A DNA stretch of 36,654 nucleotides from Thelocarpon superellum (lineage: Eukaryota): positions 1 through 36,654 of the forward strand of contig JAPEUG010000146.1 of assembly GCA_026025795.1 (NCBI GenBank), written 5' to 3'. The notes under the pieces are model-generated. The model had not been told where the DNA came from. It ran no database searches and saw nothing but the letters and a program-made list of their open reading frames with translations. The position numbers and the translations under genes are program-made. Below, piece by piece: positions 8,174 to 29,735 of this stretch (positions are counted from its first letter, which is position 1; each line of letters opens with the position of its first letter).

Positions 8174-10150
8174 CTAGCCGGCCGCCGTGCCGGACTTTCC
8201 ATCGCCCACGTCGGCCTTCTTCCGCGCCGGCATCCCGGGCACCTTGAACGCGGGCGCAGGCCCGCTGCCGGCGCTGCTCCCTTGACCGCCGATCTGGGTG
8301 AAGGTTCCACCCTTGAACCACCGATCCTCATCGGCCTCACGCTTCCGTTTCATCGCCGCCTGCACCTTGGGGTCGACCAGCTCGAGGCCTTGCACGGGCG
8401 TGAAGGCGAGCGAGCTGGCCGTGCCCGCCCCGGCCCCCGCCGTGGACCCGACGCCCGAGGATCGGAGGCCATGTGCCCGGAGCATCGCGGCGTTGCCACT
8501 CGCTCCGGCACCAAAGCCACGCAAGGAAGATGCCGTGCCGCCGACCGGGGTTGCACCGCCCCAGCCCTTGTTATTCTTGCTCAGCTTGGCGCGCGTGCGC
8601 TGGTCGACCTGCAGATTGCGGATGCGGCCCTCGTTGGCCTGCCCGATCATGCCCAGTCCCTTGGTCCCCTCGCCCGTGCCGTAGCCCACTTCCTTCTCCT
8701 CCTTCCCAAAGGCCATCCGGTTCTGCGCCTTCCGTAGATCCGTCATCGCCAGGGCTTCCTTGGCTTTGCGCGCCCGGCGGCCGCCGCGCTTGCGCGACGG
8801 CTTGTCGTCCGGCGCGGGCAGCGCGCGCGCACCCTTGTTCGGCGGTGGCTCCGTGAGCTTCTCGAGGCGCTCGAGGCAGGCCGCTTTCAATTCTTCGCCG
8901 AGCGACCCGTCCAGATGGCTGTGCACTCGGTCCACCCGCGCCGCCAGGATGACCTTGGCCGACACGATGCGCATCGCTTGGCGCTTCAGGTCCGACGGGA
9001 TGCCGCCGATGATGGGCGAGTGATAGAGAAAGCCCTGGTGGCGCACCCCCACGTTGGTCGCGAAGCCCGTCTGTGACTGCTTCTTCGACCCCAGCGGCGC
9101 GATGTTGCACGCGGGCGTCTTGGCGAGCCCCGTCAGCCCGCCGGCGAAGTTGAGCAGCTGCGCGGCCACGAGGGAGCCGATCAAGGCCGTCATGTTCGGC
9201 GCGAACACATTCATCCGCGACTGCACGTAGTCGGTCAGCGTCTTCTTCGCCTGGTCGAGCGAAAGCGCCATCTCGCAGCCGCGAAGGACGCGTTGCAGCT
9301 CGGCCTCGGTCAGCTCGCGGCCCCGCGTCGTCGTCGCCTCCACCGTGACGACCATAAGCGTTGGCCCGTCCAGCACCGACTTCAGCGAGGCCCCCACCAG
9401 GTTGTCCGACGCCGACGCCAGGCGACGCACATCATCCATGGGGCCGTTGCCGATGATGGCGACCGCCTTGGCGTAGTCCAACGGGTTGGTGACGAGCGTC
9501 TCGAGTTCGGGAAAGCGCACGGAGTAGTGGTCCCGGATGAACTTGTGTACCAGGATGATCTCGTTGTCGATCGAGGTGGAGAGGGTGTTGGACTCCGTCA
9601 GCAGATGGTACTCGGGGTTGTCCTCCACCGAGCCCACGTTGGTCGTCTGTTGCTCCGGCGGGAGGGATTGGAAGTGCCCGATTCTCTGTAGCGCGGCGGA
9701 GCGAGTCAGGGCTATGGTTCGGGTCGATGGATGTAAATTTCCAGTCACATATGAGGCACAGAGACGGGGGCGGGGGCAGGGATCACGAACCTCGAGTACG
9801 GGCTCCAGCGTCGTCATCAGGCCAGCCACGGTGCGCACGTCGTCGACGCCGCCCAGCTGCATCTTCTCCACCTTGGCTTTGGCCTCATCCTCGTCGTCAT
9901 CCTCCGCCAGCGCCTCCCCGTTGATCGTCACCGCCTCTGCCGGATTCTCTTCTTCCGCTATCGCCTCATCGTCGTCGACGTCCATCTCGCCGTCGTGGTC
10001 GGTCCGCTGCGCTTTCCGTCGGCCGTGTCCGTTGGCGGTGGGTGCGGTAGCCGACGCCTCATCTCGGCGCCAGTCGCCCGTCTGGCTGGTCTCCTCATCT
10101 GACCCCGAGTCTTCAAAATCCTGGAGGAGCTCATCGGCCAGGGTAGACAT
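8174..10150 (-). CDS. PRP31: U4/U6.U5 tri-snRNP protein Prp31, 2 exons, ~623 aa
   Basis: MSTLADELLQDF start; NOSIC/Nop domain (HKFIRDHYSVRFPELETL, LAKTPACN, ARVD); Prp31_C (KRGGRRARK, NRMAFG, SSLAFTPVQGLEL). Intron 9790-9686 (105 nt, GTTCGT...CAG). Confidence 0.96.
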   Translation of the reverse strand: MSTLADELLQDFEDSGSDEETSQTGDWRRDEASATAPTANGHGRRKAQRTDHDGEMDVDDDEAIAEEENPAEAVTINGEALAEDDDEDEAKAKVEKMQLGGVDDVRTVAGLMTTLEPVLEVRDPCPRPRLCASYVTGNLHPSTRTIALTRSAALQRIGHFQSLPPEQQTTNVGSVEDNPEYHLLTESNTLSTSIDNEIILVHKFIRDHYSVRFPELETLVTNPLDYAKAVAIIGNGPMDDVRRLASASDNLVGASLKSVLDGPTLMVVTVEATTTRGRELTEAELQRVLRGCEMALSLDQAKKTLTDYVQSRMNVFAPNMTALIGSLVAAQLLNFAGGLTGLAKTPACNIAPLGSKKQSQTGFATNVGVRHQGFLYHSPIIGGIPSDLKRQAMRIVSAKVILAARVDRVHSHLDGSLGEELKAACLERLEKLTEPPPNKGARALPAPDDKPSRKRGGRRARKAKEALAMTDLRKAQNRMAFGKEEKEVGYGTGEGTKGLGMIGQANEGRIRNLQVDQRTRAKLSKNNKGWGGATPVGGTASSLRGFGAGASGNAAMLRAHGLRSSGVGSTAGAGAGTASSLAFTPVQGLELVDPKVQAAMKRKREADEDRWFKGGTFTQIGGQGSSAGSGPAPAFKVPGMPARKKADVGDGKSGTAAG

Positions 10151-10471
10151 GGCGGCCAGTCGCTCGGCCGCGAAGAGCGGGATGAAACGCAGACAGCGGG
10201 CTGCGTGGTGATGCTGTGGCTGGCGGCCAAGGTGACAATTTCCACGGATTGAACGGAAACGGAGGGTAAGTCGTCGTGACTCATGTCCACCGCACCACGA
10301 CGCCGACCCGACGATTGGTCCTAATACGGAATAGCGCTGATTACCTCAGCCAGCTCACCTCGAATTCTCTTGAGCGTCATCCAATTGACTCCGTCAAGGC
10401 CGCTCTCCACCCGACGAGCAAGCCACGACCTCGCCTCCGACACCCTCGGTCAGGGTGTGCCAGCGGCCAAC
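10151..10471. promoter_or_regulatory. Probable bidirectional promoter shared by PRP31 and CLF1 (321 bp)
   Basis: Divergent ATGs at 10150 and 10472. Contains TGACTCA (10277-10283) and CCAAT on both strands (10314-10318 and 10381-10385). Function of these sites is unverified. Confidence 0.6.
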
Positions 10472-12568
10472 ATGGAGTCCTCACGAGGCCCCCCGCGGGT
10501 CAAGAACAAGGCGCCGGCGCCGCAGCAGATCTCGGCGGAGCAGCTGCTGCGGGAGGCCGTGGATCGTCAAGAGCCCGGGGTGCAGGCGCCGACGCAGCGC
10601 TTCGCCGACCTCGAGGAGCTCCATGAATTTCAGGGCCGGAAGCGCAAGGAGTTTGAGGACTACGTGCGGCGCAATCGGATCAACATGAACAATTGGATGC
10701 GCTATGCGCAGTGGGAGCTCGAGCAGAAGGAGTACCGCCGGGCCCGCTCCATCTTCGAGCGGGCCCTCGACGTCGATGCCACCTCCGTCACGCTCTGGAT
10801 CCGGTACGTCGAGGCCGAGATGAAAACACGGAACATCAACCACGCGCGCAACCTGCTGGACCGCGCCGTCACCATCCTGCCGCGCGTCGACAAGCTGTGG
10901 TACAAGTATGTGTACATGGAGGAGACGCTGGGCAACGTCGCCGGCACGCGCCAGGTCTTCGAACGCTGGATGAGCTGGGAGCCGGACGAGGGTGCGTGGA
11001 GTGCCTACATCAAGCTGGAGAAGCGGTACAGCGAGTTCGGTCGGGCGCGCGACATCTTCGAGCGCTTCACCGTCGTCCACCCCGAGCCGCGCAACTGGAT
11101 CAAATGGGCCCGCTTCGAGGAGGAGAACGGCACGAGCGAGCTGGTGCGCGAGGTCTTTGGCATGGCCATTGAGGCGCTGGGCGACGAATTCATGGACGAG
11201 CGGCTCTTCATCGCCTACGCCCGGTACGAGGTCAAGCTGAAGGAGTACGAGCGCGCCCGGGCCATCTACAAATACGCGCTGGACCGGCTCCCGCGCGCGC
11301 GCGCCATGACGCTGCACAAGGCCTACACCACCTTTGAGAAGCAGTTTGGCGAGCGCGAGGGCGTCGAGGATGTCATCTTCTCCAAGCGGCGGGTGCAGTA
11401 CGAGGCGCAGATCAAGGAGAACCCCAAGAACTACGACAGCTGGTTCGACTACGCCCGCCTCGAGGAGACGACGGGTGACGTGGATCGGGTGCGCGACGTC
11501 TACGAGCGTGCCATCGCGCAGATTCCGCCGACGCAGGAGAAGCGGCATTGGCGCCGGTACATCTTCTTGTGGATCTTCTACGCCCTGTGGGAAGAGATGG
11601 ACCACCAGAACGTCGAGCGGGCGCGGCAGGTCTACGACGAATGCCTGAAGCTGATCCCGCACCAGAAATTCACCTTTGCCAAGGTCTGGCTGCTCAAGGC
11701 CCACTTCGAGGTGCGACAGACGGAGATCCAGGCGGCGCGGAAGACGCTGGGCCAGGCCATCGGCATGTGCCCCAAAGACCGGCTCTTCAAGGGATACATC
11801 GAGCTCGAGCTGAAGCTGTTCGAGTTTTCCCGCTGTCGCACCCTCTACGAGAAGTACATCGCCTGGAACCCGGCCAATTGCCAGGCCTGGATCAAATGCG
11901 CCGAGCTCGAGCGGGGTCTGGATGATCTTGATCGGGCCCGGGGGATCTTCGAGCTGGCGGTGGAGCAGCCGGTGCTGGACATGCCCGAGCTGCTCTGGAA
12001 AGCGTACATCGACTTTGAAGAGGAAGAAGGCGAGTACGAGCGCACGCGGCGCCTGTACGAGCGACTGCTGGCCAAGACGGGCCACGTCAAGGTGTGGATC
12101 AGCTACGCCCACTTTGAGATCAACGTGCCCGACGCCGAGCATGCGGAGGACGAGGAAGAGGCCGACGACGAGCGACCGGTGTCGGACGAGGCGAAGCAGC
12201 GGGCGCGGCAGATCTTCGCCCGCGCCTACAAGAGCATGAAGGAGAAGGATCTGAAAGAAGAGGTAGGCGCCCCACGCGATCGACGGCGCGCGTCCGGCCG
12301 GCTGACGCTGTTCCAGCGAGTGGCGCTCCTGAACGCCTGGAAGTCCTTCGAGCAGACACATGGATCGGCGGAGGACCTCGAGAAGGTGGAAGCACAGATG
12401 CCCCGGAAGGTCAAGAAGCGACGGAAGCTGGACGGCGAGTCGATGGAGTTCGAGGAGTACATCGACTACGTCTTCCCGGCCGACGACCAGCAGGCCGCCA
12501 ACCTGTCCAAATTGCTGCAGATGGCTCATTCCTGGAAGAAGGGACAAGACGGGAACGCGGCATCGTGA
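10472..12568 (+). CDS. CLF1: NineTeen complex HAT-repeat splicing factor Clf1/Syf3/crooked neck, 2 exons, ~680 aa
   Basis: [29 protein letters not shown] start, many HAT repeats ([10 protein letters not shown]), and C-terminal [11 protein letters not shown]. Intron 12263-12316 (54 nt; GTAGGC, GCTGAC branch, CAG). Confidence 0.97.
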
Positions 12569-18639: not shown

Positions 18640-20844
18640 ATGGCTGCCCCGGCGCCACCGGTGGCACTCCATGGGCCCTGCTCCATCGTCTTCAACAACA
18701 CCCTCTATGTCTACACCCCCGACGCCTTTCAGTCCATCCCGCTGGAGCAGGGGGGACGGTGGAGGTCGCTCCCCCTCGAGGCCGCTGTCACGGGTGCCCG
18801 CTGTGTTAGTGTGATCCCGAGCGGCGACGCCAGCCAGGCAGCATTGTTCCTGGTGGGCGGCTCCACCAACGTCTCGACCATGTATCCGGGCCTCTCCTAC
18901 TACTCCTTTGCGAATAATCGGTGGGACTCCAACATGCCCACGACGTCAGTGACGCAGAACCGGAGAAATCACGCCTCGATCTACCTCAACGCCTCGTCTT
19001 CGCTCCTCATCTATGCCGGCTCGCAGGACAGCTCGAAGAACACGCAGCCGTCGTCACAGACCTTTCTCATCGCCGCAGAGCCGCCATATACCGTCACGTC
19101 CTTTCCGTCCAAAGCGGCACCACCCGGCGTCAATCCTGTGCTCATGCCGTGGAATGACACCCACGCCGCTCTGGTGGGAGGTGACCCAAATAACCAGCGG
19201 GTCACGCTGTTCTCCCCCGACCAAGGATGGGTCGACCTGGGAGTGCAGCTTCCCAGTGGTATCCAGAGCCAGCAGCAAGCGGTCGTCGTGACGGGTAGCG
19301 ACGGCAGCAAGATCCTCGAGACCTTTGACTTTTCCACCTCTCCCAACACCGTCAACTCGACGGTACTCGTTGATCCGTCCAGCAACGGCCCGTCGGCTAG
19401 CAGCATCATCGGGGCCGCGCATTCGGCGCATTCCAAGGAGCGACGCTGGGGTCCCCCCCCGGCCAAGCGGCGGCGGCGAGATGTGACGGCGGCCAACTAC
19501 CCGGCCTACAATGCATCCCTGGCGCCGACGACCACGCGAAGCGACCTTGCCCTCGCACAGGATACGAATGGCCAGGTGGTCGTGGTCGGGGGCGATAGCT
19601 CCGACCCGATCAGCGTCTTCAACTCCCAGACGAACGCATGGGTCGACACGAAACAACTCTTTCGCGGCGTCGCGAGCACGCCGAGCTCCTCCCGCACTCC
19701 CACCTCGACTCCATCATCCAGCTCATCTCCGACCTCGTCGGCCCCCTCGTCACCCACCGCCGTAGCGGGCAGCGACGATGGCAAATCAAAGTCCCTCACC
19801 ATTCTTGGCGCGACCCTTGGCAGTATCTTTGGACTCATCTTCCTCATGGTTCTCATCCTTCTCATGCTGCGATATAGCCGGCGGCGACAGCGGCGGGACG
19901 CAGAGCGGCAGAGCCGCCTTGGAAACTCCGGCACGGATCGGGATCGGCTCAGCTTTGCGGATCGCGGGGCCAGCTTCATGACGGAAGCGGGGGGGTTCGT
20001 CCTGCCCGCCGTGGGTGATTCGCGAGGCTCGACGACGTCGACCGCCATCATGGGAAACAAGTATGGGTACGGCGACAAGCACGAGCCGACTGGGTCATAC
20101 GCGCCGACGGCCGGCGAATCACGGAAACCGCGAAGTTCGGGGTGGAGCCGGTACTTCTCCGGTCTGAATGGCAACGACTTTGCGCCGTCCGCGTCGGCAT
20201 CACGCGGCCCGGCGCTCTCGACGCAATTCCGGGAAGGCGACGACCGAAGTACTCTCGGCTCGGCGGCCGTGGCGCCCCTGGACGTCAAGAAAGAGCTCAG
20301 CCCGGACGACAAGAACCGCGGTCGCGGCCCGTCCCCACGCGGCTTCATCGGCCGCAATGGGCGAGACTATTCATCCGACACGGAGTCCTCGGGCCGCAGC
20401 GAAGGCTTCTCCAGCGGCATCCCGCCCAGCTTCAACGAAGACAACCAATGGACACCGGTCGCGCGACAAGACTGGGCCGGCGCGGGACGAGCGTCGTCTC
20501 GCGACCGCACCGCCAGCAGCGTCTACACCGCCAGCCGGCAGGGGTCCATGGTACCGCGCGAAGCGAACGCGGGGCCCTTGTTCCCACGCAACAGCAGCCA
20601 CGGCTCGATCCTGGGCTCGATGCATCCCGAGAGCCGCGCCCAAGCGGCGTCCATGTTCCACGAAAGCCCCGGCAACCCGCCCGCCTTTCCGCTCCCGCCG
20701 GGCCACGCGCCCGCTGGTTCCACTCCCATGGGTCCCGCGGGCGCGGCGGCCTTGCCGCCGGACCGGAGAGATCTCCGCACGGCTCACTCGGATATGAGCT
20801 GGTTGAACCTGGGCAGTTCACGCGACGAAAGTGCCGGCGGTTGA
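18640..20844 (+). CDS. Single-pass membrane protein with kelch/beta-propeller-like N-terminal domain, S/T linker and long low-complexity tail, 734 aa
   Basis: Single long ORF with strong GC3 bias. Kelch-like motifs (LFLVGG, LIYAGS, ALVGG, VVVGG), TM helix ILGATLGSIFGLIFLMVLILLML followed by RYSRRR, and tail motifs DRLSFADRG, SSGWSRYFSG and SDMSWLNLG. Confidence 0.88.
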   Translation: MAAPAPPVALHGPCSIVFNNTLYVYTPDAFQSIPLEQGGRWRSLPLEAAVTGARCVSVIPSGDASQAALFLVGGSTNVSTMYPGLSYYSFANNRWDSNMPTTSVTQNRRNHASIYLNASSSLLIYAGSQDSSKNTQPSSQTFLIAAEPPYTVTSFPSKAAPPGVNPVLMPWNDTHAALVGGDPNNQRVTLFSPDQGWVDLGVQLPSGIQSQQQAVVVTGSDGSKILETFDFSTSPNTVNSTVLVDPSSNGPSASSIIGAAHSAHSKERRWGPPPAKRRRRDVTAANYPAYNASLAPTTTRSDLALAQDTNGQVVVVGGDSSDPISVFNSQTNAWVDTKQLFRGVASTPSSSRTPTSTPSSSSSPTSSAPSSPTAVAGSDDGKSKSLTILGATLGSIFGLIFLMVLILLMLRYSRRRQRRDAERQSRLGNSGTDRDRLSFADRGASFMTEAGGFVLPAVGDSRGSTTSTAIMGNKYGYGDKHEPTGSYAPTAGESRKPRSSGWSRYFSGLNGNDFAPSASASRGPALSTQFREGDDRSTLGSAAVAPLDVKKELSPDDKNRGRGPSPRGFIGRNGRDYSSDTESSGRSEGFSSGIPPSFNEDNQWTPVARQDWAGAGRASSRDRTASSVYTASRQGSMVPREANAGPLFPRNSSHGSILGSMHPESRAQAASMFHESPGNPPAFPLPPGHAPAGSTPMGPAGAAALPPDRRDLRTAHSDMSWLNLGSSRDESAGG

Positions 20845-21414
20845 TGGACGAATGGCCGCTCGACACGGACTGATCTTGACGGGCCATGTCATGTCATCAT
20901 CGTCACGTCACACCCTCCCGCGACCCACGCGCGATGATGATTTGATCTGTACAGTTTCATACTCTCCTCGTTCTACTCTAGCATGGATCGCGATCGACAC
21001 GACACGAACAGATGGGACGAAATGGAAGGGATGGGTTGGGTTGGGACGGATGCATTACTCGAATTGAATCACACGAACGAACAAACGATAGAATAGTAAC
21101 TAGTACTACGATGCGAATGAAGGGGGGGGAGGTGAAGAGGAGAGGGGGGGAGGATGGTGTTTATAGTCACTCCTTCATCCGCCACTCATCCATCCGTCCA
21201 TCCGTCAATCACAAATCATCACACATCCGCTATACATCAGATCGTCGGCATTTCTTCACTTTTAAGTTAGAGCTACGCTGTGAAACTGAAATCCAGTCTG
21301 CACAACGGGTATAAATAACGTTGAAACACACGACTTTATCGTGACAACTGCACGATGATGAATTGCAGCTGACGCCATGTAATCACCTGCCCATATAACT
21401 AGCTCTCTGTTTGG

Positions 21415-23379
21415 TTATTTCAGGGGCCGATAGACCTTCTCGAGCTGCTCCACCACCTCGCTGTACACGGCCGATTGGAAGTCGCCGTCTCCCAAGTTGG
21501 TCCCCCACGGGCCAAAGGAACAGTTTAAGCAACGGCGAATCACCTCGTAGTATTCCGGCCCCGCTTCACTGACGCCGTCTTGGTCGAGCCAATACTGCGC
21601 TGTGCAGTAGTCTGTCATGTCGTTGGGCGCGCCGTCCGGCCCCAGGTAGCGCGGCCGCGCACTGTGACTCTCGACCGGCACGCCGTAGCACAGCTCGAGC
21701 AGCATGATGCCCAGCGATCGGAGGCTCTTGCGGCACTCTTGCGACGCTTGGTGTCCGTCGCACGCCGCTGCCGTCGACGGCGGTGCGTGCGACACAAACC
21801 GTCGCGAGAGATACGGCCGCTCGAGGATGATGGGCCGAGAGGATCCCTCGCTGGCGCGAAGGAAATGAATGTCCCTCTTGCTCCACGTCACGTCCATCCA
21901 CGGCGTCCGGTAGAGCTGGAGTAGAGACGCCGCCAGTGTGACCGCTATTGCATACCGATCGCGCCGTGTCAGAACAAACTCATCTCGAGGAGTGGCGGAC
22001 GGGTTCTCGCGATGTCGAGCCGGGTGCAACAAGTGCTCCAGCGTCACGGTGTCCCGGTAGTTTCGTGCGGTCGCCCCATGCGAGGTGTGGTATATGGCGT
22101 GTCGCCGATTCTGGTCCTGTAGGTCCCGAAGATATCCCAGCGAACTCGGTGTGGAGCGATGCCCGACAGGCGCGCTCTGAAGGACGGAGCACAGATCGTA
22201 GATCTCCACCGACGGCTCGGTGACGTGTGCGGGCCCTGCGTCTCCTTGTCGCTCCGTCGGCGGATCCTGAAAAGCTACCTGCCGAGGTCGTCGCCGACCC
22301 CAGCGGCTGGTCGTGGCCGAACTTGCGTCGGAGAGTGCCATCGAGCTCGATGAGTCGGTATTCGAGGCTACCCTGGCAGGATGTTCCAGAGCTTCCTCGA
22401 CGATTCGAATCTCCGTCGCGTGTCCATTCCAGTCCATCGTCTGTTCATCCGTTGATAGGGAGAAGAGCACCCTCAGGTGGGCGTCCGATCGATCCCCCGG
22501 CGGCGTGGTCCTCCGCACCGCGTCTCCCATTCGTTTCTCTAGTAAGAGATCCGCTCGATGCTGCGGCTCCACCCTCGAGCACGTGCATCTCCAGCGAAGC
22601 CGCAGCACCTCGTAGAACGACGCGGCTTGATCGCGGATCCGCCGGAAGGCTTGCGGGGTCGTCCGTCGGCTCCGGGTGGGGAAGAGCCGCTCATTCTTTC
22701 GGAGCAGCTTCTCGAGCTCCTCGTTCCTGGTGGTCAAGTCATGCAAGATCCTTTGCAGCTTTCCTTTGTAGATCATGAACTTCAGGCGCCGGAGCTCGTA
22801 AGCGACATTGAGTCGTCCGATCTTTGTGCCCGTGCTGCCCGTCACAGTATACTGGTCATGTCTGACTTCACCGCCGTCGCCGGCGCCATCTGCCTCGCCT
22901 GAGACGGTGAAGCCGGCGCCAGTGGGCTACAAATGGCGGTTAGCTGGGACCCGCTTGACGGCACGCTTCGGGCGTATGTCGATCCACACCTTGCCATCCT
23001 TAATCCCAAGTCGTTCCGTCAGAGCCTCCAGTTTCTGGTGTATGTCATCGATGATGATTCGGAAGGGATCGTAAGCGTTGGCGTAGCGGTTTCGGAGGGC
23101 CTTGTCCAGCGCCGGATCCCGCCAGCCGTCGCTCCGCGAGTTCCGCAGCAATTCGTCCTTCTGCTCCTCCGGCCATGCGACCGGGCTGAGCAGCTCCTCC
23201 AGATTCCCTTCCCAGAGCACTTTCTGAACTCTGATGTCGTTGGAGAATCGCAGGAATGTCGTCCGAAAATTCCACCAGTCGTCGATGAACTCATAGCCCT
23301 CCTGATAGTGATCCAGTGCACCCATGATGAGTGGAAAGGCGGCAAGCACCAGCCCCGCCGTCTCGACTCCAGTCACCAT
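21415..23379 (-). CDS. HeLo-like N-terminal domain + degenerate kinase-like (DUF7580-type) domain, 2 exons, ~633 aa; putative cell-death effector
   Basis: Exons 23379-22990 and 22926-21415; 63-nt intron GTGTGG...GCTAAC...TAG. N-terminus MVTGVETAGLVLAAFPLI. C-terminal LTRRDRYAIAVTLAASLLQLYRTPW, WSKRDIHF, PYL, LGIMLLEL, Y..VIRRCL.C.F and VYSEVVEQLE. Confidence 0.82.
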
Positions 23380-23690
23380 GATGGCGTGCCAAAGAGAACT
23401 GCTCTTTCCATCGACGCTTCCGTCGGAGGCTCGCCGACAACCGGGGTGTCCGCGCCACTCTCGCCGAAGCCTCGTTTTGGGATGTCTTTCCCTTCCAAGT
23501 CATTGTCGTCGTCAAGTCTGTCAGCCTTGCTAGTGAGGGCCATGGCTCGACTTGCTGTGATTGGCTTGATTCTGCAGCGAGGTCTGCGCACGATAGGCTC
23601 AGCCGTCTCCCTCCAATCGCGCGATGGTCGCTCCTCAGCCCTGGAATGGTGGTGTCGTCTCACGTGCTGTGCTTTCGTCTTGCCCAGAGC

Positions 23691-23787
23691 GGGGCTCTGG
23701 GGCTCTGGGGCTCTAGGGGCTCTAGGGGCTCTAGGGGCTCTAGGGGCTCTAGGGGCTCTTGAGGCTCTAGGGGCTCTCGAGGCTCTC
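23691..23787. repeat. G-rich minisatellite, 11 units of ggggctct(a), between the divergent effector and NLR genes
   Basis: Units counted directly: 2 x 8 bp then 9 x 9 bp, including gaggctct variants. Six AGGGG junctions. Confidence 0.92.
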
Positions 23788-24000
23788 CGCGGCGACTTCT
23801 TCAGCCCCGCGCTGGTGTCAAGGTTTGGCCCGGGCCCATCCCCAAGACCAGAACAACCACCAAGCCGACGAGTTGGAGTGCTCGGCCAAATCCATGACGA
23901 TGGTAACTATGAGGGATCCAACTGGGTCGTTCAAGCCACGTGAAAGGATCAGATCCTACAGCTGAAGGACGGCGATACGACTGTGCTTGTGACTTGAGAC

Positions 24001-27000
24001 ATGGCAGTCGTTCCTGCCCCAAGATCCATCGCTGCACAGGCACAGTCGTGCCAGCATTCTTACATAGAATTGCACCTCCTGGCGTCTCAGCGAGGCAGAG
24101 CTGATGATGAACCACTAACAACATCTTCCCTCCTCGATGGGTTGGAACGCTTCAAGCTCTGGGCTGGTAACATTGGGGCTCTCCAGAAGGGCACAAGCTC
24201 GTTGGATCACCGCTTAAGAGGCGCTCCTTCCATCCATTCTCAAGTCCTCCGGCTTCTCGACGAGTTACATTTCACCTTGACCGAAGGTTGTGGCGTTGAC
24301 ACCTCTTGCAAGACACATGCTGATCCCCGGCACAGCGTCGTCCATCTTATCCGGTCAAAGGCCGCAGCGACATGCCTCGCCAACGGCCATGGCCACCCTC
24401 GAGGCCGAGTTCGCCGACCACGACGATTCGAGTTCGGCGGACTCAGGCAACGAGGCCACGGTGCCCATGCCAGAGCTCGAGCAGCTCTCTCGGAGCATGG
24501 CAGATACGATCACGTCTCTCTTCAAGCTCTCGCAGGCCATCCGACGCTCACCTCGGCGAAATCGTCGTGCCGGCGCAGTTGCAACGTCGCTGGAGCCGTA
24601 CAATCCCGTGTATGACATTCATTATGTACGGGATAAGTATGCCCATATTCGTGACGAATGGCTCGTCGAGAGGCTGGGGACGGCCATCACTCAGCGTCGA
24701 GAGTTCCTCCGGTATCAGAAGAATCATCGAGCCAAGCTTTCCCGCGAGGCTCTGTCCCGCCCACAGGACGAAGCCATTCAACCAGTTGCTTTGGCCATGC
24801 CCCTGGGTCCAAACACAGCAACTCCCAACCAGGTAGCGTCTGGTCTGCCTCGATCAGCAAAGTCAGCACCAATCACCAAGTTGTCGTCAACAGAGGCTAC
24901 CACATTTGTCGCGGAGGATAATCCAGAGGTCGAAAGGCAGTCAGTTGCGGACCAGTCGGACACGTCCTTTGCAAGCTCGGTCGGCGACACGACTGAACGC
25001 GGACGCCCCCTCCCCCCGCTACCGCCCGAGTCCGCCAACCAGACGCCATTTGAATGCCCACTTTGCTTCACGATCCAGGTGGTCAAAGGTCCGTTGGCAT
25101 GGAAGTGAGTTCTGTCCCGTCACACGCTTGACCGGGCCAGCATGCACTAAGCAACTCCAGAAAACATGTCTACAGCGATCTTCAGCCGTATCTCTGCATC
25201 TCAAAGGACTGCCCGTTGCAGCTGTTTTCCAGCCGACAGGAATGGTCGCTACACGATCTCAACAACCATCGCAAGGAATGGCGATGCCCCTCCTGTCCAC
25301 AACACAAGAGCGCCTCTCCTCACCTCCTAGAAGCCCACTTTCGAGATCGACATCCGGAGTACGCCGCGGCGCAATTTGCTGCGCTCGTCCTTCTGGGCGA
25401 GGCGCCTATTGAAAGCGTTGCGGCCTCGGCCTGCCCATTTTGCGACTGGGAGACGAAACTACGAGACGACAACCCGGATTTGGCAGTGGGTGTGACGGTT
25501 TCCGTAACGCATAAACAGTATCAGAAACACGTTGGTCGTCATTTGGAGCAGGTGGCGCGCTTTGCTCTTCCCCGCGCCGCTACTGCCGAGGATAGCTCGG
25601 CTCCAGGGTCCACTACAGCGAAGACAGCGATTGTTTCATCAGCGCCGTCGGGGTCCCGAGCAGGGAGCCGCGCTCATCCAATACTGGATCTGCATCAGCA
25701 TGTGTCAGCATGGTCGAATCGCGTGGATGTGCTGCCACAGGGCGCCGGGCGACTCGATGAAAAAGCGATGTTTCCGCGTGACAAGTCGTCTTCATCGGAT
25801 CATGACGGGTCGAGCTCAACGAGCACGAACCTGCTGATAGCAGACGTGGCGGACGAAGAAGGTCCGCGCATGGCTTTCTCAAGTCCCCCAGTCGATCACT
25901 CCCCAAAACCTCCCGAGTCCCCCGCTGCCTCAGCGGCAAACGAGGGCACCGAGGAGACAGGGGCTCGTGAACCTTACGACCAGAGTCTACAGATCCTAGA
26001 CTGGATCAGCCCCTTGGATTTTACTTCTCAAGAGACCGATCTGCTTGATCAGCGACTGCCGGGGAGTTACGACTGGTTCCTCAAGCTTGAACGATTCCGA
26101 GACTGGATGAACAAGGATGGGGGAAGATTGTGGTGCACAGGTGAGCGTAAGTTGGATTCCATCGTCCGTTGGATGAAGGGGTATGCTGACCTGACCCTAG
26201 CGGGAGCGGGCAAGACAATGCTGAGGTATAGCCTGCTCGACCTTGTGCTTTGTGATGGTCACTAACGTTGATGCGATAGTACCGTTGTGGCGGATCATGT
26301 ACGACGCGAATATCCGTCTAGAGATGTCGGAATCGCCAATTTCCTCTGTGATCCGACGTCTCGTTACCAGTCGTGTTGGGATTTGATAGCAAGTCTCTTG
26401 AAGCAACTGCTACAACAGTACATCCGACAGAACGGACGGCTACCCGAGAGGACCACCGAGTTCTACCAAAGCCACGTGCTCCATGCAACACGCCCGAGCT
26501 TAGAGGAGTATCTGGCTGAGATTGACTTCGTCATTTCCACCTTTACCCAGGTCTTCCTGATCGTGGACGGCGTCGATGAATTGCCAACCAGTGAAGGTGA
26601 TGAGATCATTCGCATTGCCTCGAACCGTCTCGCCCTTCGGAAAGCTAATATCATGCTTACTTTGCGACCGACTGCGAGGGTGGAAGACGCAGTCGGAAGC
26701 GATACACAAGTGGCTCTTCCGGGTGATGGTGCGGACTTGCGAGAGTACGTCAGTGATGCCTTGGATATGCGACAGTCTCTGGCAAAGCTAGTCCAGGAGC
26801 GTCCGGCTTTTCGAGAAGATATTCTCGACCGACTGTGCGATGCCAGCCGTGGCGTGTAAGTTACCTTGATCCGTCCTTTGACCAGCCTGTCTGAACCCAC
26901 CATAGGTTCTCCTTAGCCCGACACCATCTCGACTTGTTGGCGGAAACGGACAATTGGGACGATCTTTGGAATGCTATCAAGACGCTCCCGGAGACCATGA

Positions 27001-28484
27001 CGGAAACACATCTTCTACGCTGGGAAGCGATGAAAGGCCAAGGGTCGGCCAATTTCCATGTCGCGCAGAGGATTTTGAGCTGGACCTACTTCGGATATCG
27101 GCCCTTAAGCTTGGTCGAGCTTCGCCAGGCTCTTTTGGCCGACGATTCGGCCGGTCTGGACGTCAGAAAGATGATTCCGGCTGAGAAAATCGTCTCACTG
27201 TGCGGTGGATTTGTGCAGTCCGACCCTAAGACTACGTTGGTCCACTTCACAGACGAATCGTGTCGCGAATTTCTCCAAGCCCATCAAGACCTGCTCCCGC
27301 GCGGTCACGCGCGTCTAGCACGGACATGCCTTGCCTATCTCTCGTCTGATGCCTTCGCAACCGGTCCGTGCCCTGATCAACGTGCCTGGGAAGCTCGACA
27401 TCGAGCCGAGCCTTTTCTCGACTACGCCGTCCAATACTGGGGGGATCACGTCCGACAAGCGGCCGATGCATCAACGAGTCGACAGGCGCTGGATTTCTTG
27501 AGTCTTTGGACCTTCGAGCCCCACCTCGGTACCTTGCTGCAAGCCCAGACATTGTTCTCGACGTCAGGAAGCGCATTCATCACGACACTCCCACCTCATA
27601 GCCAGTCGAGGCTGATCGTTGCATCATCATTTGGATTGAAAGAAGCTGTCGTTGTGATGCTCCAAGAAGGGGCTGACGTCAACGCTCAGTCCTTTCATGG
27701 CGAGGCAGCACTGCACGCGGCTTCTCGAGCAGGCCACGCTGAGACTGTTGACACGCTGCTTGCAGCAGGAGCAGATGTCAATGCGCAGTCACTTGAAGGC
27801 AAGACAGCACTACAGGCTGCTTCTCGAGCAAGCCATGTTGAGATTGTGGACAGGTTGCTTGCAGCTGGAGCTGATGTCAGGACTCAATCACTTCGTGGCA
27901 AGACAGCACTGCAGGCCGCTTCTCGAGCAGGCCACGTTGAGATTGTGGACAGGCTGCTTGCAGCTGGCGCTGATGTCAGGACTCAATCACTTCGTGGCAA
28001 GACAGCACTGCAGGCCGCTTCTCGAGCAGGCCACGTTGAAATTGTGGACAGGCTGCTTGCAGCTGGCGCTGATGTCAACGCTCAGTCAATTCGTGGCGAG
28101 ACAGCACTGCAGGCCGCTTCTCGAGCAGGCCACATTGAGATTGTGGACAGGCTGCTTGCAGCTGGCGCTGATGTCAATGCTCAGTCCGTTGATCGTGACA
28201 GTGCTCTGCAGGCTGCTTCTCAAGCAGGCCATAGTGGGATTGTGCGGCTCCTTCTTCAGGCTGGAGCTGATGTCAACGCTCGGCTTCTTGATCTTAATAC
28301 TGCACTGACGGCTGCGTCTGGAGCAGGCCACACTGCAGTTGTGCAGCTCCTGCTTGAGTCTGGAGCGGACGTCAATGCCTTGACACTTCAAGGCGAGACA
28401 GCACTGCAGGCTGCTTCCAGTACAGGCCACATTGACGTTGTGCAGCTCCTTCTTCAGGCTGGCGCCGACTCCGACATACCTTAG
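24001..28484 (+). CDS. Fungal NLR: helical N-terminal domain + C2H2-like zinc fingers + NACHT + winged-helix + 9 ankyrin repeats, 6 exons, ~1406 aa
   Basis: Exons 24001-24286, 24336-25104, 25161-26146, 26201-26225, 26280-26855 and 26906-28484 join in frame (4221 nt). Motifs: RFKLWAGNIGA..SLDHRLR; FECPLCF..WKKHVYSDLQPYLC..DC; ILDWISP; Walker A GEPGAGKT; Walker B VFLIVDGVDE; RPLSLVELRQAL; FLDYAVQYWGDH; ANK repeats. Confidence 0.9.
27670..28470 (+). repeat. 99-bp ankyrin-coding tandem repeats; central units nearly identical at DNA level
   Basis: KTALQAASRAGHVEIVDRLLAAGADV units repeat with near nucleotide identity around 27800-28190. Confidence 0.92.
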
Positions 28485-29207
28485 CATCCAATTGGAGAAC
28501 CATGTCGGAGAGCGAAGGAGTCAACTACTTAGTGTGCATTATTAAATCCTGATTCAGCTCTCTACGAGTTACTCGTACAGCAAGATCAGCTTAGCGGGTC
28601 GTTCGGTAACCCTTCCTTCCATTTCCATCGTCCTCGGATCGTCCATTCTTTCTTTCTTTCTTCGCCGGTGGCCTCGTTAGGTGGTCGGTCGGTCGATCCT
28701 ACCTCGACAATATTTCAGAATCTCGATTGGGATGCCTGTGCTACGTCCGCATGTACGCACACGCAGAAGGTCGGACAGACGGATGGAACAGAGAAGGGAA
28801 GGGGGGGGGGGGTAAGATGCTCCGTTCACTGATTCATTGGCCCAGTCAGCCATTTGTTATATGGGCACCTACGCTTGAACCGTGGTCTCATGCCAACGAG
28901 AGGACAGGGTGCTGAGTCTATCCTATCGTCCCGTACAACATACATGTACGTATATGTCAATGTATGGTATCAGGACAACGACAACGACAACGACACGCAG
29001 TGTGTGAGGCGTGAGGCGTAAGGGACGAGGCACGGGGCAAAAAGTAAAAGGCCAAAGGCAGGAGGAAATAACCCCGACGCCAACCAAACTCCCCCGCCCT
29101 CCTCCTCCTCCGCATTCCTGCCTTTCCTTGCCTTTCCGGCCTCCCTTGTCTTTCTCTGCCATTTCCCGTTCAATCCCGGTCTCTTCCATTCCAGTCCCGT
29201 TCTCTTT

Positions 29208-29228
29208 CCCCCCCCCCCCCCCCCCCCC
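29208..29228. repeat. C21 homopolymer within a pyrimidine-rich tract downstream of the C2H2 gene
   Basis: Seen directly in the sequence. Confidence 0.85.
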
Positions 29229-29735
29229 GGCTCCCTTCCCTTCCACGGCTTTCAACGTCCGTGCCGCGCGCTAGACGAAAGGGCCGGAAAAACATCTCCG
29301 GTCGGAAACACGCCCAAAGAAATAGAGCAAGCCGTCGTCGCATTCCTTCCCTTTCCTTTCTTCGTATCCTCCCATTCTCCCAATTCCATCATTTCGTCCC
29401 TCGTCTCCACCTCCCCTCCGGTTCGCCTCCACCTTCCGCTTGCCTCATTGGTACGTGGATGGCCATTCGTGCCGCACCATCAATCATTCGTAATTACCCG
29501 AGCCATTATGAGATGAGCCAACAGACGAGCCGGTATTAGATGCAGCTATCCCCATCCCACCCCCTTTCCCAACCAAAGCACCACCCGTGAAAAGTGAGCG
29601 TAACAAAAAGATAAACCATCAGGCAGATCTGGACTCGTAAAAGGTTCGACGATTCGACAGTGACGAGTATCGTTCGAGTCTGCTTTCGACATGTGTCCAA
29701 AGGGGTATCATGAGAGCCGCGGAGGCGTCGTCGAC

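Follow-up and report, generated by a model that had tools for sequence, protein, structure and literature searches.

A conserved divergent gene pair of Pezizomycotina: a predicted MLKL-like DUF7580 pseudokinase and a zinc-finger protein with variable C-terminal domains

Introduction

In the fungal NWD2/HET-S, FNT1/HELLF, and PNT1/HELLP systems, the gene for a NOD-like receptor (NLR) adjoins one coding for an executioner of the HeLo/HELL type (PMC12881547, PMC9815663). According to a 2025 review that covers fungal two- or three-gene clusters in general, the activating domain of the fungal gasdermin/protease clusters occurs in fusion with NLR cores or directly with ankyrin (ANK), TPR, or WD40 repeats, and some HELL domains occur on kinase or pseudokinase proteins, as in MLKL (PMC12881547). 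Here, we describe a pair of divergent genes on a contig of a metagenome-assembled genome of Thelocarpon superellum (Pezizomycotina, Thelocarpales), which was analyzed over its whole length of 36,654 bp (henceforth, the window). One gene codes for a DUF7580 protein (21415-23379, minus strand, 633 aa) and the other for a NACHT-ankyrin protein with an N-terminal zinc-finger module (24001-28484, plus strand, 1406 aa). We find that the DUF7580 gene and the zinc-finger gene constitute an old, self-contained, co-diverging divergent pair, and that the Thelocarpon pair is best explained as one instance of a two-gene unit that is self-contained and widespread among Pezizomycotina. By analogy, its best reading is a fungal two-gene death or immune cluster that would combine a new coupling domain with an MLKL-like executioner.

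The adjacency of an NLR gene and a candidate executioner gene is shared with the NWD2/HET-S-type pairs. However, no Pfam amyloid motif was found on either Thelocarpon protein, the DUF7580 protein bears a pseudokinase instead of a prion-forming tail, and the coupling that we propose would proceed via a module of about 480 aa with a helical part and zinc fingers, most of whose carriers are not NLRs. The het-Q1/het-Q2 clusters are comparable in combining an executioner gene with a partner that displays a conserved domain on varied ends (here ANK, TPR, NACHT-ANK, and NB-ARC), but the executioner of the present pair belongs to another family and the partner has no protease domain; on present evidence, activation of the DUF7580 protein cannot be put down to proteolysis. 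In the sec-9/plp-1 allorecognition pair, an NLR operates with an adjacent, co-evolving gene, PLP-1 being a patatin effector and SEC-9 a SNARE; both the patatin and the SNARE families are absent from the Thelocarpon pair. The DUF7580 protein itself compares with MLKL and the plant MLKLs (AtMLKL1-3, Pm13) in the predicted order of a membrane-directed helical bundle, brace helices, and a dead kinase domain, with full-length MLKL aligning over both of its parts and AtMLKL3 residues 1-173 matching its N-terminus. It differs from them in a sequence identity of ~10-13%, in the adjoining gene, which codes for a zinc-finger protein with no RIPK3-type kinase beside the pair, and in a conserved WxCxC...H and CxxC set.

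The two Thelocarpon proteins are members of the Pfam families DUF7580 (PF24476) and zf-C2H2_AcuF (PF26082), both without a described function. In the literature outside subscription journals and supplements (the latter may list such architectures), we found no publication naming DUF7580 and no description of a DUF7580/zinc-finger pairing, and the matches listed for acuF included unrelated uses of the term. The words 'zinc finger' are absent from the 2025 review (PMC12881547), and 'zinc' and 'C2H2' from Wojciechowski et al. 2022, in both cases supplements aside.

Linkage and co-divergence of the DUF7580 and zinc-finger genes

Two peptide patterns of DUF7580, derived from a 10-sequence alignment, were scanned against metagenome contigs of the Joint Genome Institute (JGI), which yielded 78 loci that fall into 57 clusters at a DNA identity of at least 90% (blastn). 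The three N-terminal exons of the Thelocarpon NLR gene, used as tblastn queries, matched 30, 32, and 29 of the 78 loci, and every match lies on the strand opposite the DUF7580 gene, directly upstream of it, at 257-1139 bp from its estimated start. When a full-length DUF7580 match is accompanied by at least 1 kb of upstream sequence, the partner module is found without exception (30/30 loci, in 23 clusters, to which two partial-match clusters may be added for a total of 25; the compound locus L037 was set aside from this class), whereas three of the nine loci with a partial DUF7580 match and enough flank are positive. Ten loci with a full-length match and less than 1 kb upstream are uninformative, with hidden Markov models (HMMs) catching the edge of the partner gene in two of them. 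Built from the matches to the N-terminal module, these HMMs detect it in 36 of the 78 loci, with no match at any other position of the 763,931 bases. The linkage between RFxLWAGNIGA/C2H2-type genes and DUF7580 genes, put forward for testing in the initial annotation of the window, is therefore found in all informative full-length loci and in divergent orientation. The set-aside locus L037 displays a second, partial DUF7580 N-terminus (L037:5416-5631, L037:10001-10891) about 4.4 kb upstream of its main gene.

Clustering of the open reading frames (ORFs) of 21 representative loci recovered both the DUF7580 and the zinc-finger families in 21/21, and the next most frequent family in just three; the flanks therefore differ, without a third conserved gene. 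An adjacency due to inherited synteny or chance, devoid of functional meaning, is rejected as very improbable, given that the informative loci remain positive down to 22-25% protein identity and that the flanking genes differ, with only these two families recurring. The pairwise protein distances of the two genes are correlated (Mantel r 0.86 over 18 loci, with none of 2000 permutations as high), and their maximum-likelihood trees share supported clades, viz., {window, L001}, {L006, L014, L018}, a 6-row clade, an 8-row clade, and {L052, L058, L064}. Such co-divergence is what shared descent alone would produce if the two genes have stayed linked since the origin of the pair, and this is precisely the point that it makes.

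A conserved N-terminal module with variable C-terminal tails

The conserved part of the partner (~480 aa) comprises an RFKxWAGNIGA...SLDxRLR stretch, a helical part with the motifs IRxSxxRDxY, DIxHVxxK, and WLxERLGxAITxRRxxLxY, a linker, and a multi-finger region of the form FECPxC...W-KHVFxDLRPYVC...HRR.W.C..C...H....H...CPxCDWE...HLGxHMEQLALFAxP. The database annotation PF26082 (zf-C2H2_AcuF) is found on the deposited proteins P0004, P0005, and P0155-P0158, and Atlas clusters of that name score 0.97; profiles of the finger region give weak matches to C2H2 fingers of the classical and JAZ/zf-met types. The NACHT and winged-helix parts of the window's NLR, used as tblastn queries, matched none of the 78 loci, and among the representative partner genes scanned a NACHT-type module is present in the L030/L035 pair only. 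Thus, the conserved partner, as judged from its sequence, is an N-terminal zinc-finger module rather than an NLR. The initial annotation had taken an NLR to be the partner of the DUF7580 gene: its N-terminal zinc-finger module indeed recurs, but its NLR part is not conserved.

The region C-terminal to this module is variable. The tails recognized within the zinc-finger ORF include NPHP3_N with ANK repeats (L035), ANK repeats (L031), a tyrosine phosphatase (L058), C2 (L021), DUF7104 (L052), and RRM (L009). Those found in an adjacent ORF, viz., TPR (L055), RRM (L028), Myb (L014, L018), BAG (L073), GYF (L026), and kinase (L064), are less certain as they may belong to the next gene. Nothing recognizable was found in the partner tails of L006, L043, L045, L057, and L075. 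Deposited proteins further include a direct fusion to TPR (P0005) and an NB-ARC form (P0159); homologs were scarce in the word-indexed searches, which returned 3, 2, and 7 matches. The close relatives L052, L058, and L064 bear different tails, and the NLR-type pairs (the window and L035) lie in different clades, each beside ANK-only forms.

As first noted for the window, an amyloid motif appears to be lacking: neither protein matches a Pfam amyloid-motif family at E-values up to 1-5, with no dedicated motif grammar having been run. An amyloid-signaling NLR/effector pair was accordingly considered and discarded, in view of the lack of a Pfam match to such a motif on both proteins and of the kinase-like domain in which the effector ends.

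Architecture of the DUF7580 protein

Pfam recognizes a single domain in the Thelocarpon protein (deposited as P0001), DUF7580, which spans aa 225-627 and scores 93.1 bits (cut-off 27); 79 of the 80 relatives aligned with P0001 match it as well. An exhaustive phmmer search places 3780 representative clusters in the family at E ≤ 0.001 and 168 at E ≤ 1e-30, mostly of 560-640 aa. An AlphaFold2 model based on the 80-sequence alignment (predicted local distance difference test [pLDDT] 82.6, predicted template modeling score [pTM] 0.76) shows helices at 4-36, 38-64, and 89-124, a disordered linker, two further helices at 165-218 and 222-241, and an α/β domain that extends to residue 633 and contains a disordered insert (308-370 within 245-633).

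For residues 228-633, the Foldseek and VIA-align matches are almost all protein kinases or pseudokinases of the TKL, RLK-Pelle, RIPK, and MLKL kind, which make up 49 of the 50 top VIA rows. These include the BIR2 pseudokinase (Z 11.3, 185 aligned residues, root-mean-square deviation [rmsd] 6.9), SIRK1 (10.9), BIK1 (10.0), RIPK3 (9.2), full-length MLKL (9.1), and the rat MLKL pseudokinase (8.7), and BRAF is matched by Foldseek at E 7.7e-4. P0001 on its own has no meaningful phmmer match in the PDB sequences. For the profile of the DUF7580 family, the best match in the PDB sequences is the rat MLKL pseudokinase (E 0.013), and kinases account for 22 of its 25 matches, with LAssLLQLhsTPWL..W.K.DI.F aligned over the catalytic-loop region and LGI.LLELCfG over the α-F motif. 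Across the 80 aligned sequences, the columns that correspond to HRD vary (K13/S12/D9, S16/E15, Q13/S10), and the position of 'DFG' reads P-Y/F-I/V-S. As neither position is conserved, the DUF7580 domain is a pseudokinase; an active protein kinase is ruled out by the missing conserved HRD aspartate and DFG motif. Hence, the kinase-like fold initially assigned to this protein is supported, without conservation of its catalytic residues. Near-invariant in the family are W242, C244, C246, H253, C376, C596, and C599 (about 21517-22593 of the window, minus strand), and the WxCxC...H and CxxC set that they form may bind a structural zinc ion within the pseudokinase. A further member of the family, P0082 (1634 aa), has ~1000 extra C-terminal residues past DUF7580 that show no Pfam match.

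The N-terminal helices are modeled with pLDDT values of 80-96, and a separate model of residues 1-242 reaches 76.6. The first of these helices, MSGxExAGxVLGxFPLxISA, is hydrophobic and rich in glycine, and E6, G9, and L12 hardly vary. Among the first 38 VIA rows are the N-terminal domain of the NLR Sw-5b (Z 10.7), the coiled-coil (CC) domains of Rx (8.8) and MLA13 (8.3), AtMLKL3 residues 1-173 (8.2), the HeLo domain of HET-S (7.3, 148 aligned), MLKL 2-117 (7.2, rmsd 2.9, 100 aligned), the CC-R domain of NRG1.1 (7.1), and the MLKL N-terminal domain (7.0), scores of an order that unrelated helical bundles also attain. When DUF7580 clusters are left out, the named Atlas clusters nearest to the N-terminus by language-model features are HeLo clusters (0.94, 0.90), followed by PigL_N and SesA near 0.8, a similarity that we use as a lead only. 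Besides DUF7580 itself, HeLo is the sole Pfam family detected in more than three of the 80 relatives (Exo70_N in three, and four more families in two each). The HeLo-like N-terminus suggested at the outset is thus upheld as a helical bundle leaning to the HeLo/four-helix-bundle (4HB) type on three weak lines of evidence, and its kinship with HeLo is probable, albeit not proven. With the brace helices (165-218, 222-241) and then the kinase-like domain lying C-terminal to this bundle, the DUF7580 protein is, according to the model, MLKL-like in architecture.

A candidate sensor/executioner module and its alternatives

We propose to read the pair, with a probability of roughly 0.5, as a non-amyloid sensor/executioner module of cell death whose sensor end can be swapped. 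This reading is the most economical because of the analogy with the amyloid-coupled NLR/HeLo pairs and the gasdermin/protease clusters. The C-terminal module of the partner would sense a cue; in the NLR form, oligomerization driven by the NACHT domain would cluster the N-terminal zinc-finger modules, which could then bind the pseudokinase or the brace of the DUF7580 protein. Binding, in turn, would release or oligomerize the helical bundle for an attack on the membrane, resulting in a necroptosis-like death signal that would dispense with amyloid motifs and RIPK3-type kinases alike. In such a system, the zinc-finger N-terminal module would be the coupling domain, with the Thelocarpon window holding its NLR version. 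The physical binding, the direction of signaling, the membrane attack, and the immune or allorecognition role are all features that we infer.

To our knowledge, it is not known how the fungal MLKL-like proteins, i.e., those combining HeLo/HELL with a pseudokinase, are switched on, and a dedicated, co-diverging neighbor makes for a concrete candidate activator. If the proposal is true, fungal death clusters would have a third principle of coupling next to amyloid templating and proteolysis, and two families hitherto without function, the large DUF7580 family and zf-C2H2_AcuF, would acquire a role; moreover, the swappable sensor ends could help show what the fungal NLR-like receptors detect. A more specific version, which we offer tentatively and hold to be possible rather than probable, is that the N-terminal module is a new adaptor that binds the pseudokinase and fires the HeLo-like bundle in a necroptosis-like pathway independent of kinase and amyloid, forming a portable cassette with swappable sensors throughout Pezizomycotina. 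In that case, the sensor end (NLR, ANK, TPR, and integrated enzyme or RNA-binding baits) would have been exchanged freely across this group.

Several observations weigh against the cell-death proposal. The N-terminal VIA Z-scores of 7-10.7 are within the range reached by unrelated helical bundles (values below ~13 being common by the tool's own note), Foldseek finds no match for the N-terminal model at E ≤ 0.001, Pfam HeLo (PF14479) does not match P0001 at E-values up to 5, and the same family is scarce among the relatives (4/80, best E 0.0013). The RRM, Myb, GYF, BAG, C2, phosphatase, and PHD tails are atypical of immune sensors and would equally fit a role in nucleic-acid transactions or signaling. 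Codon bias differs within the pair, with a GC content at third codon positions (GC3) of 0.73 for the DUF7580 gene and 0.57 for the NLR gene. The partner module was not found in L048, L067, L068, L069, L071, and L077 despite enough flank, these six loci carrying only weak, diverged DUF7580 matches (17-39 bits). Finally, the loci were chosen via the DUF7580 patterns alone, such that the sample consists of zinc-finger genes with a DUF7580 neighbor.

The strongest competing explanation is a regulatory pair without a lethal function, in which a pseudokinase scaffold and a C2H2 protein would be co-regulated for the control of RNA, chromatin, or signaling outside cell death, with the N-terminal bundle of the DUF7580 protein serving merely as a coiled-coil interaction domain. 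The RRM (L009, L028), Myb (L014, L018), GYF (L026), tyrosine phosphatase (L058), and C2 (L021) tails, along with a PHD tail in an Atlas cluster, speak for such a pair, as do the resemblance of the finger region to classical and JAZ/zf-met type C2H2 fingers and the weakness of the HeLo evidence. Nevertheless, we consider it rather unlikely: the NACHT-ANK, NB-ARC, ANK, and TPR tails are a hallmark of fungal sensors of the STAND (signal transduction ATPases with numerous domains) type, the different tails on closely related partners are what an exchange of sensors typically produces, the named relatives closest to the N-terminus in their features are without exception HeLo, PigL_N, or SesA clusters, and MLKL comes first among the PDB matches to the kinase-like domain. 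A guard/guardee or allorecognition pair resembling sec-9/plp-1 would likewise account for how tightly the two genes are linked and for their co-divergence. In such a pair, the zinc-finger protein would monitor the DUF7580 protein or the reverse, and mismatched alleles of the tightly linked, co-evolving genes would trigger incompatibility. The near-identical ankyrin repeats of the window's NLR, with variation at few positions as in repeat-bearing fungal NLRs, and the low GC3 of its gene are compatible with this explanation; yet the other contigs of the locus, which are short, differ by ~1% at the level of single-nucleotide polymorphisms (SNPs) and offer no alternative haplotype, and most partners are without NACHT, leaving it improbable. 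The sensor/executioner module remains the reading that we prefer for the pair.

Gene models, features, and neighbors of the pair in the window

The initial annotation had two intact genes diverging from a 621-bp spacer among ordinary genes, all elements of which were recovered at the same positions (Table 1). The spliced product of the DUF7580 gene is identical to the deposited P0001 (633 aa). The six-exon model of the NLR gene, built on frame-keeping canonical GT..AG introns, gives 1406 aa with no internal stops. Its first exon is deemed real because its conserved half (LERFKLWAGNIGA...) also occurs in P0005 and in 30 loci elsewhere. The zinc-finger region is 41% identical to that of the L035 homolog. 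The coding sequence of the Walker A motif (GEPGAGKT) is split by two introns and a micro-exon; the same splicing of this region, including the micro-exon, is found in the deposited P0004, and the alignment to the NACHT domain of L035 is contiguous across the junctions. The NTPase is matched by NPHP3_N with 88 bits and by NACHT with 33.2 bits (cut-off 26.7). As for intron 4, and hence the joining of NACHT to ANK, we infer it only from canonical splice signals and domain logic, and the alignment to the single NLR-type homolog (L035) stops just short of it. As its C-terminal module comprises NACHT and eight near-identical ankyrin repeats, the zinc-finger gene of the Thelocarpon window is an NLR. 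The array of these repeats has a DNA period of 99 bp (27672-28442, 7.8 copies, 81% matches), with the differences among repeats concentrated at positions 5-6 and 9-12 of the repeat. Compared with the six-exon model, the NLR annotation in the database, P0004 (768 aa), is truncated on both sides, beginning at an internal ATG in exon 2 and ending at a TAA within the GTAAGT donor of intron 4; it is therefore without the RFKLWAGNIGA exon and the whole winged-helix/ankyrin part.

Table 1. Coordinates of the features of the gene pair in the 36,654 bp window
Feature	Coordinates	Strand	Remarks
DUF7580 gene, exon 1	22990..23379	-	23379..22990 in reading direction
DUF7580 gene, exon 2	21415..22926	-	22926..21415 in reading direction
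Intron of DUF7580 gene	22927..22989	-	63 nt; GT..CTAAC..AG, with CTAAC branch site; spliced product equals P0001
Helical-bundle part, aa 1-124	23008..23379	-	HeLo/4HB-like (AlphaFold2, VIA, Pfam, language-model features); in exon 1, which runs to 22990
Two long 'brace'-like helices, aa 165-241	22594..22824	-	AlphaFold2; preceded by disordered linker, aa 130-164
Predicted pseudokinase domain (Pfam DUF7580), aa 242-633, with stop codon	21415..22593	-	PF24476, Foldseek, VIA, family profile
Divergent spacer, ATG to ATG	23380..24000		621 bp
NLR exon 1	24001..24286	+	Conserved part aa 45-95, motif LERFKLWAGNIGA...SLDHRLR; tblastn matches in 30/78 loci, and P0005
NLR exon 2	24336..25104	+	Helical part IR.S..RD.Y, DI.HV, WL.ERLG.AIT.RR..L.Y; disordered linker; start of zinc fingers, FECPLC
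NLR exon 3	25161..26146	+	
NLR exon 4	26201..26225	+	25-nt micro-exon in the Walker A region, between 54-nt introns 26147-26200 and 26226-26279
NLR exon 5	26280..26855	+	
NLR exon 6	26906..28484	+	
AcuF-type C2H2 zinc-finger region, NLR aa 334-492	25049..25581	+	PF26082 on P0004; split by intron 25105-25160
NACHT/NPHP3_N NTPase, NLR aa 653-829	26062..26700	+	Pfam
NLR intron 4	26856..26905	+	50 nt; GTAAGT..CTGAAC..TAG; putative, would join NACHT to ANK
Eight ankyrin repeats	27612..28454	+	33 aa each; two identical at the protein level

The spacer between the two genes is presumably a bidirectional promoter. Its middle (23691-23786) is occupied by a 9-bp minisatellite, GGGGCTCTA, in 10.9 copies. 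In the runs X1-X3 (the probable source run of the window plus two runs from moss metagenomes), contigs show loose ends at 23693 and 23729, suggesting that this minisatellite varies in copy number or in its assembly. The moss-metagenome runs of a second study (X2-X4) contain short contigs mostly 95-99% identical, and some at least 99% identical, to both genes (20500-29500); T. superellum or a close strain therefore occurs there.

The neighbors of the pair are ordinary genes, viz., PRP31 and a CLF1-like HAT-repeat gene (both confirmed by Pfam), a kelch-like gene, and a gene for a C2H2 factor. The weaker GC3 bias of the NLR gene relative to the two splicing-factor genes, remarked upon when the window was first read, is borne out by the values for CLF1-like and PRP31 (0.88 and 0.85, respectively), the ANK part of the NLR reaching only 0.45 and the kelch-like gene 0.78. 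PRP31 (minus strand) and the CLF1-like HAT-repeat splicing factor gene (plus strand) are also arranged head to head, 219 bp apart (8174-12568).

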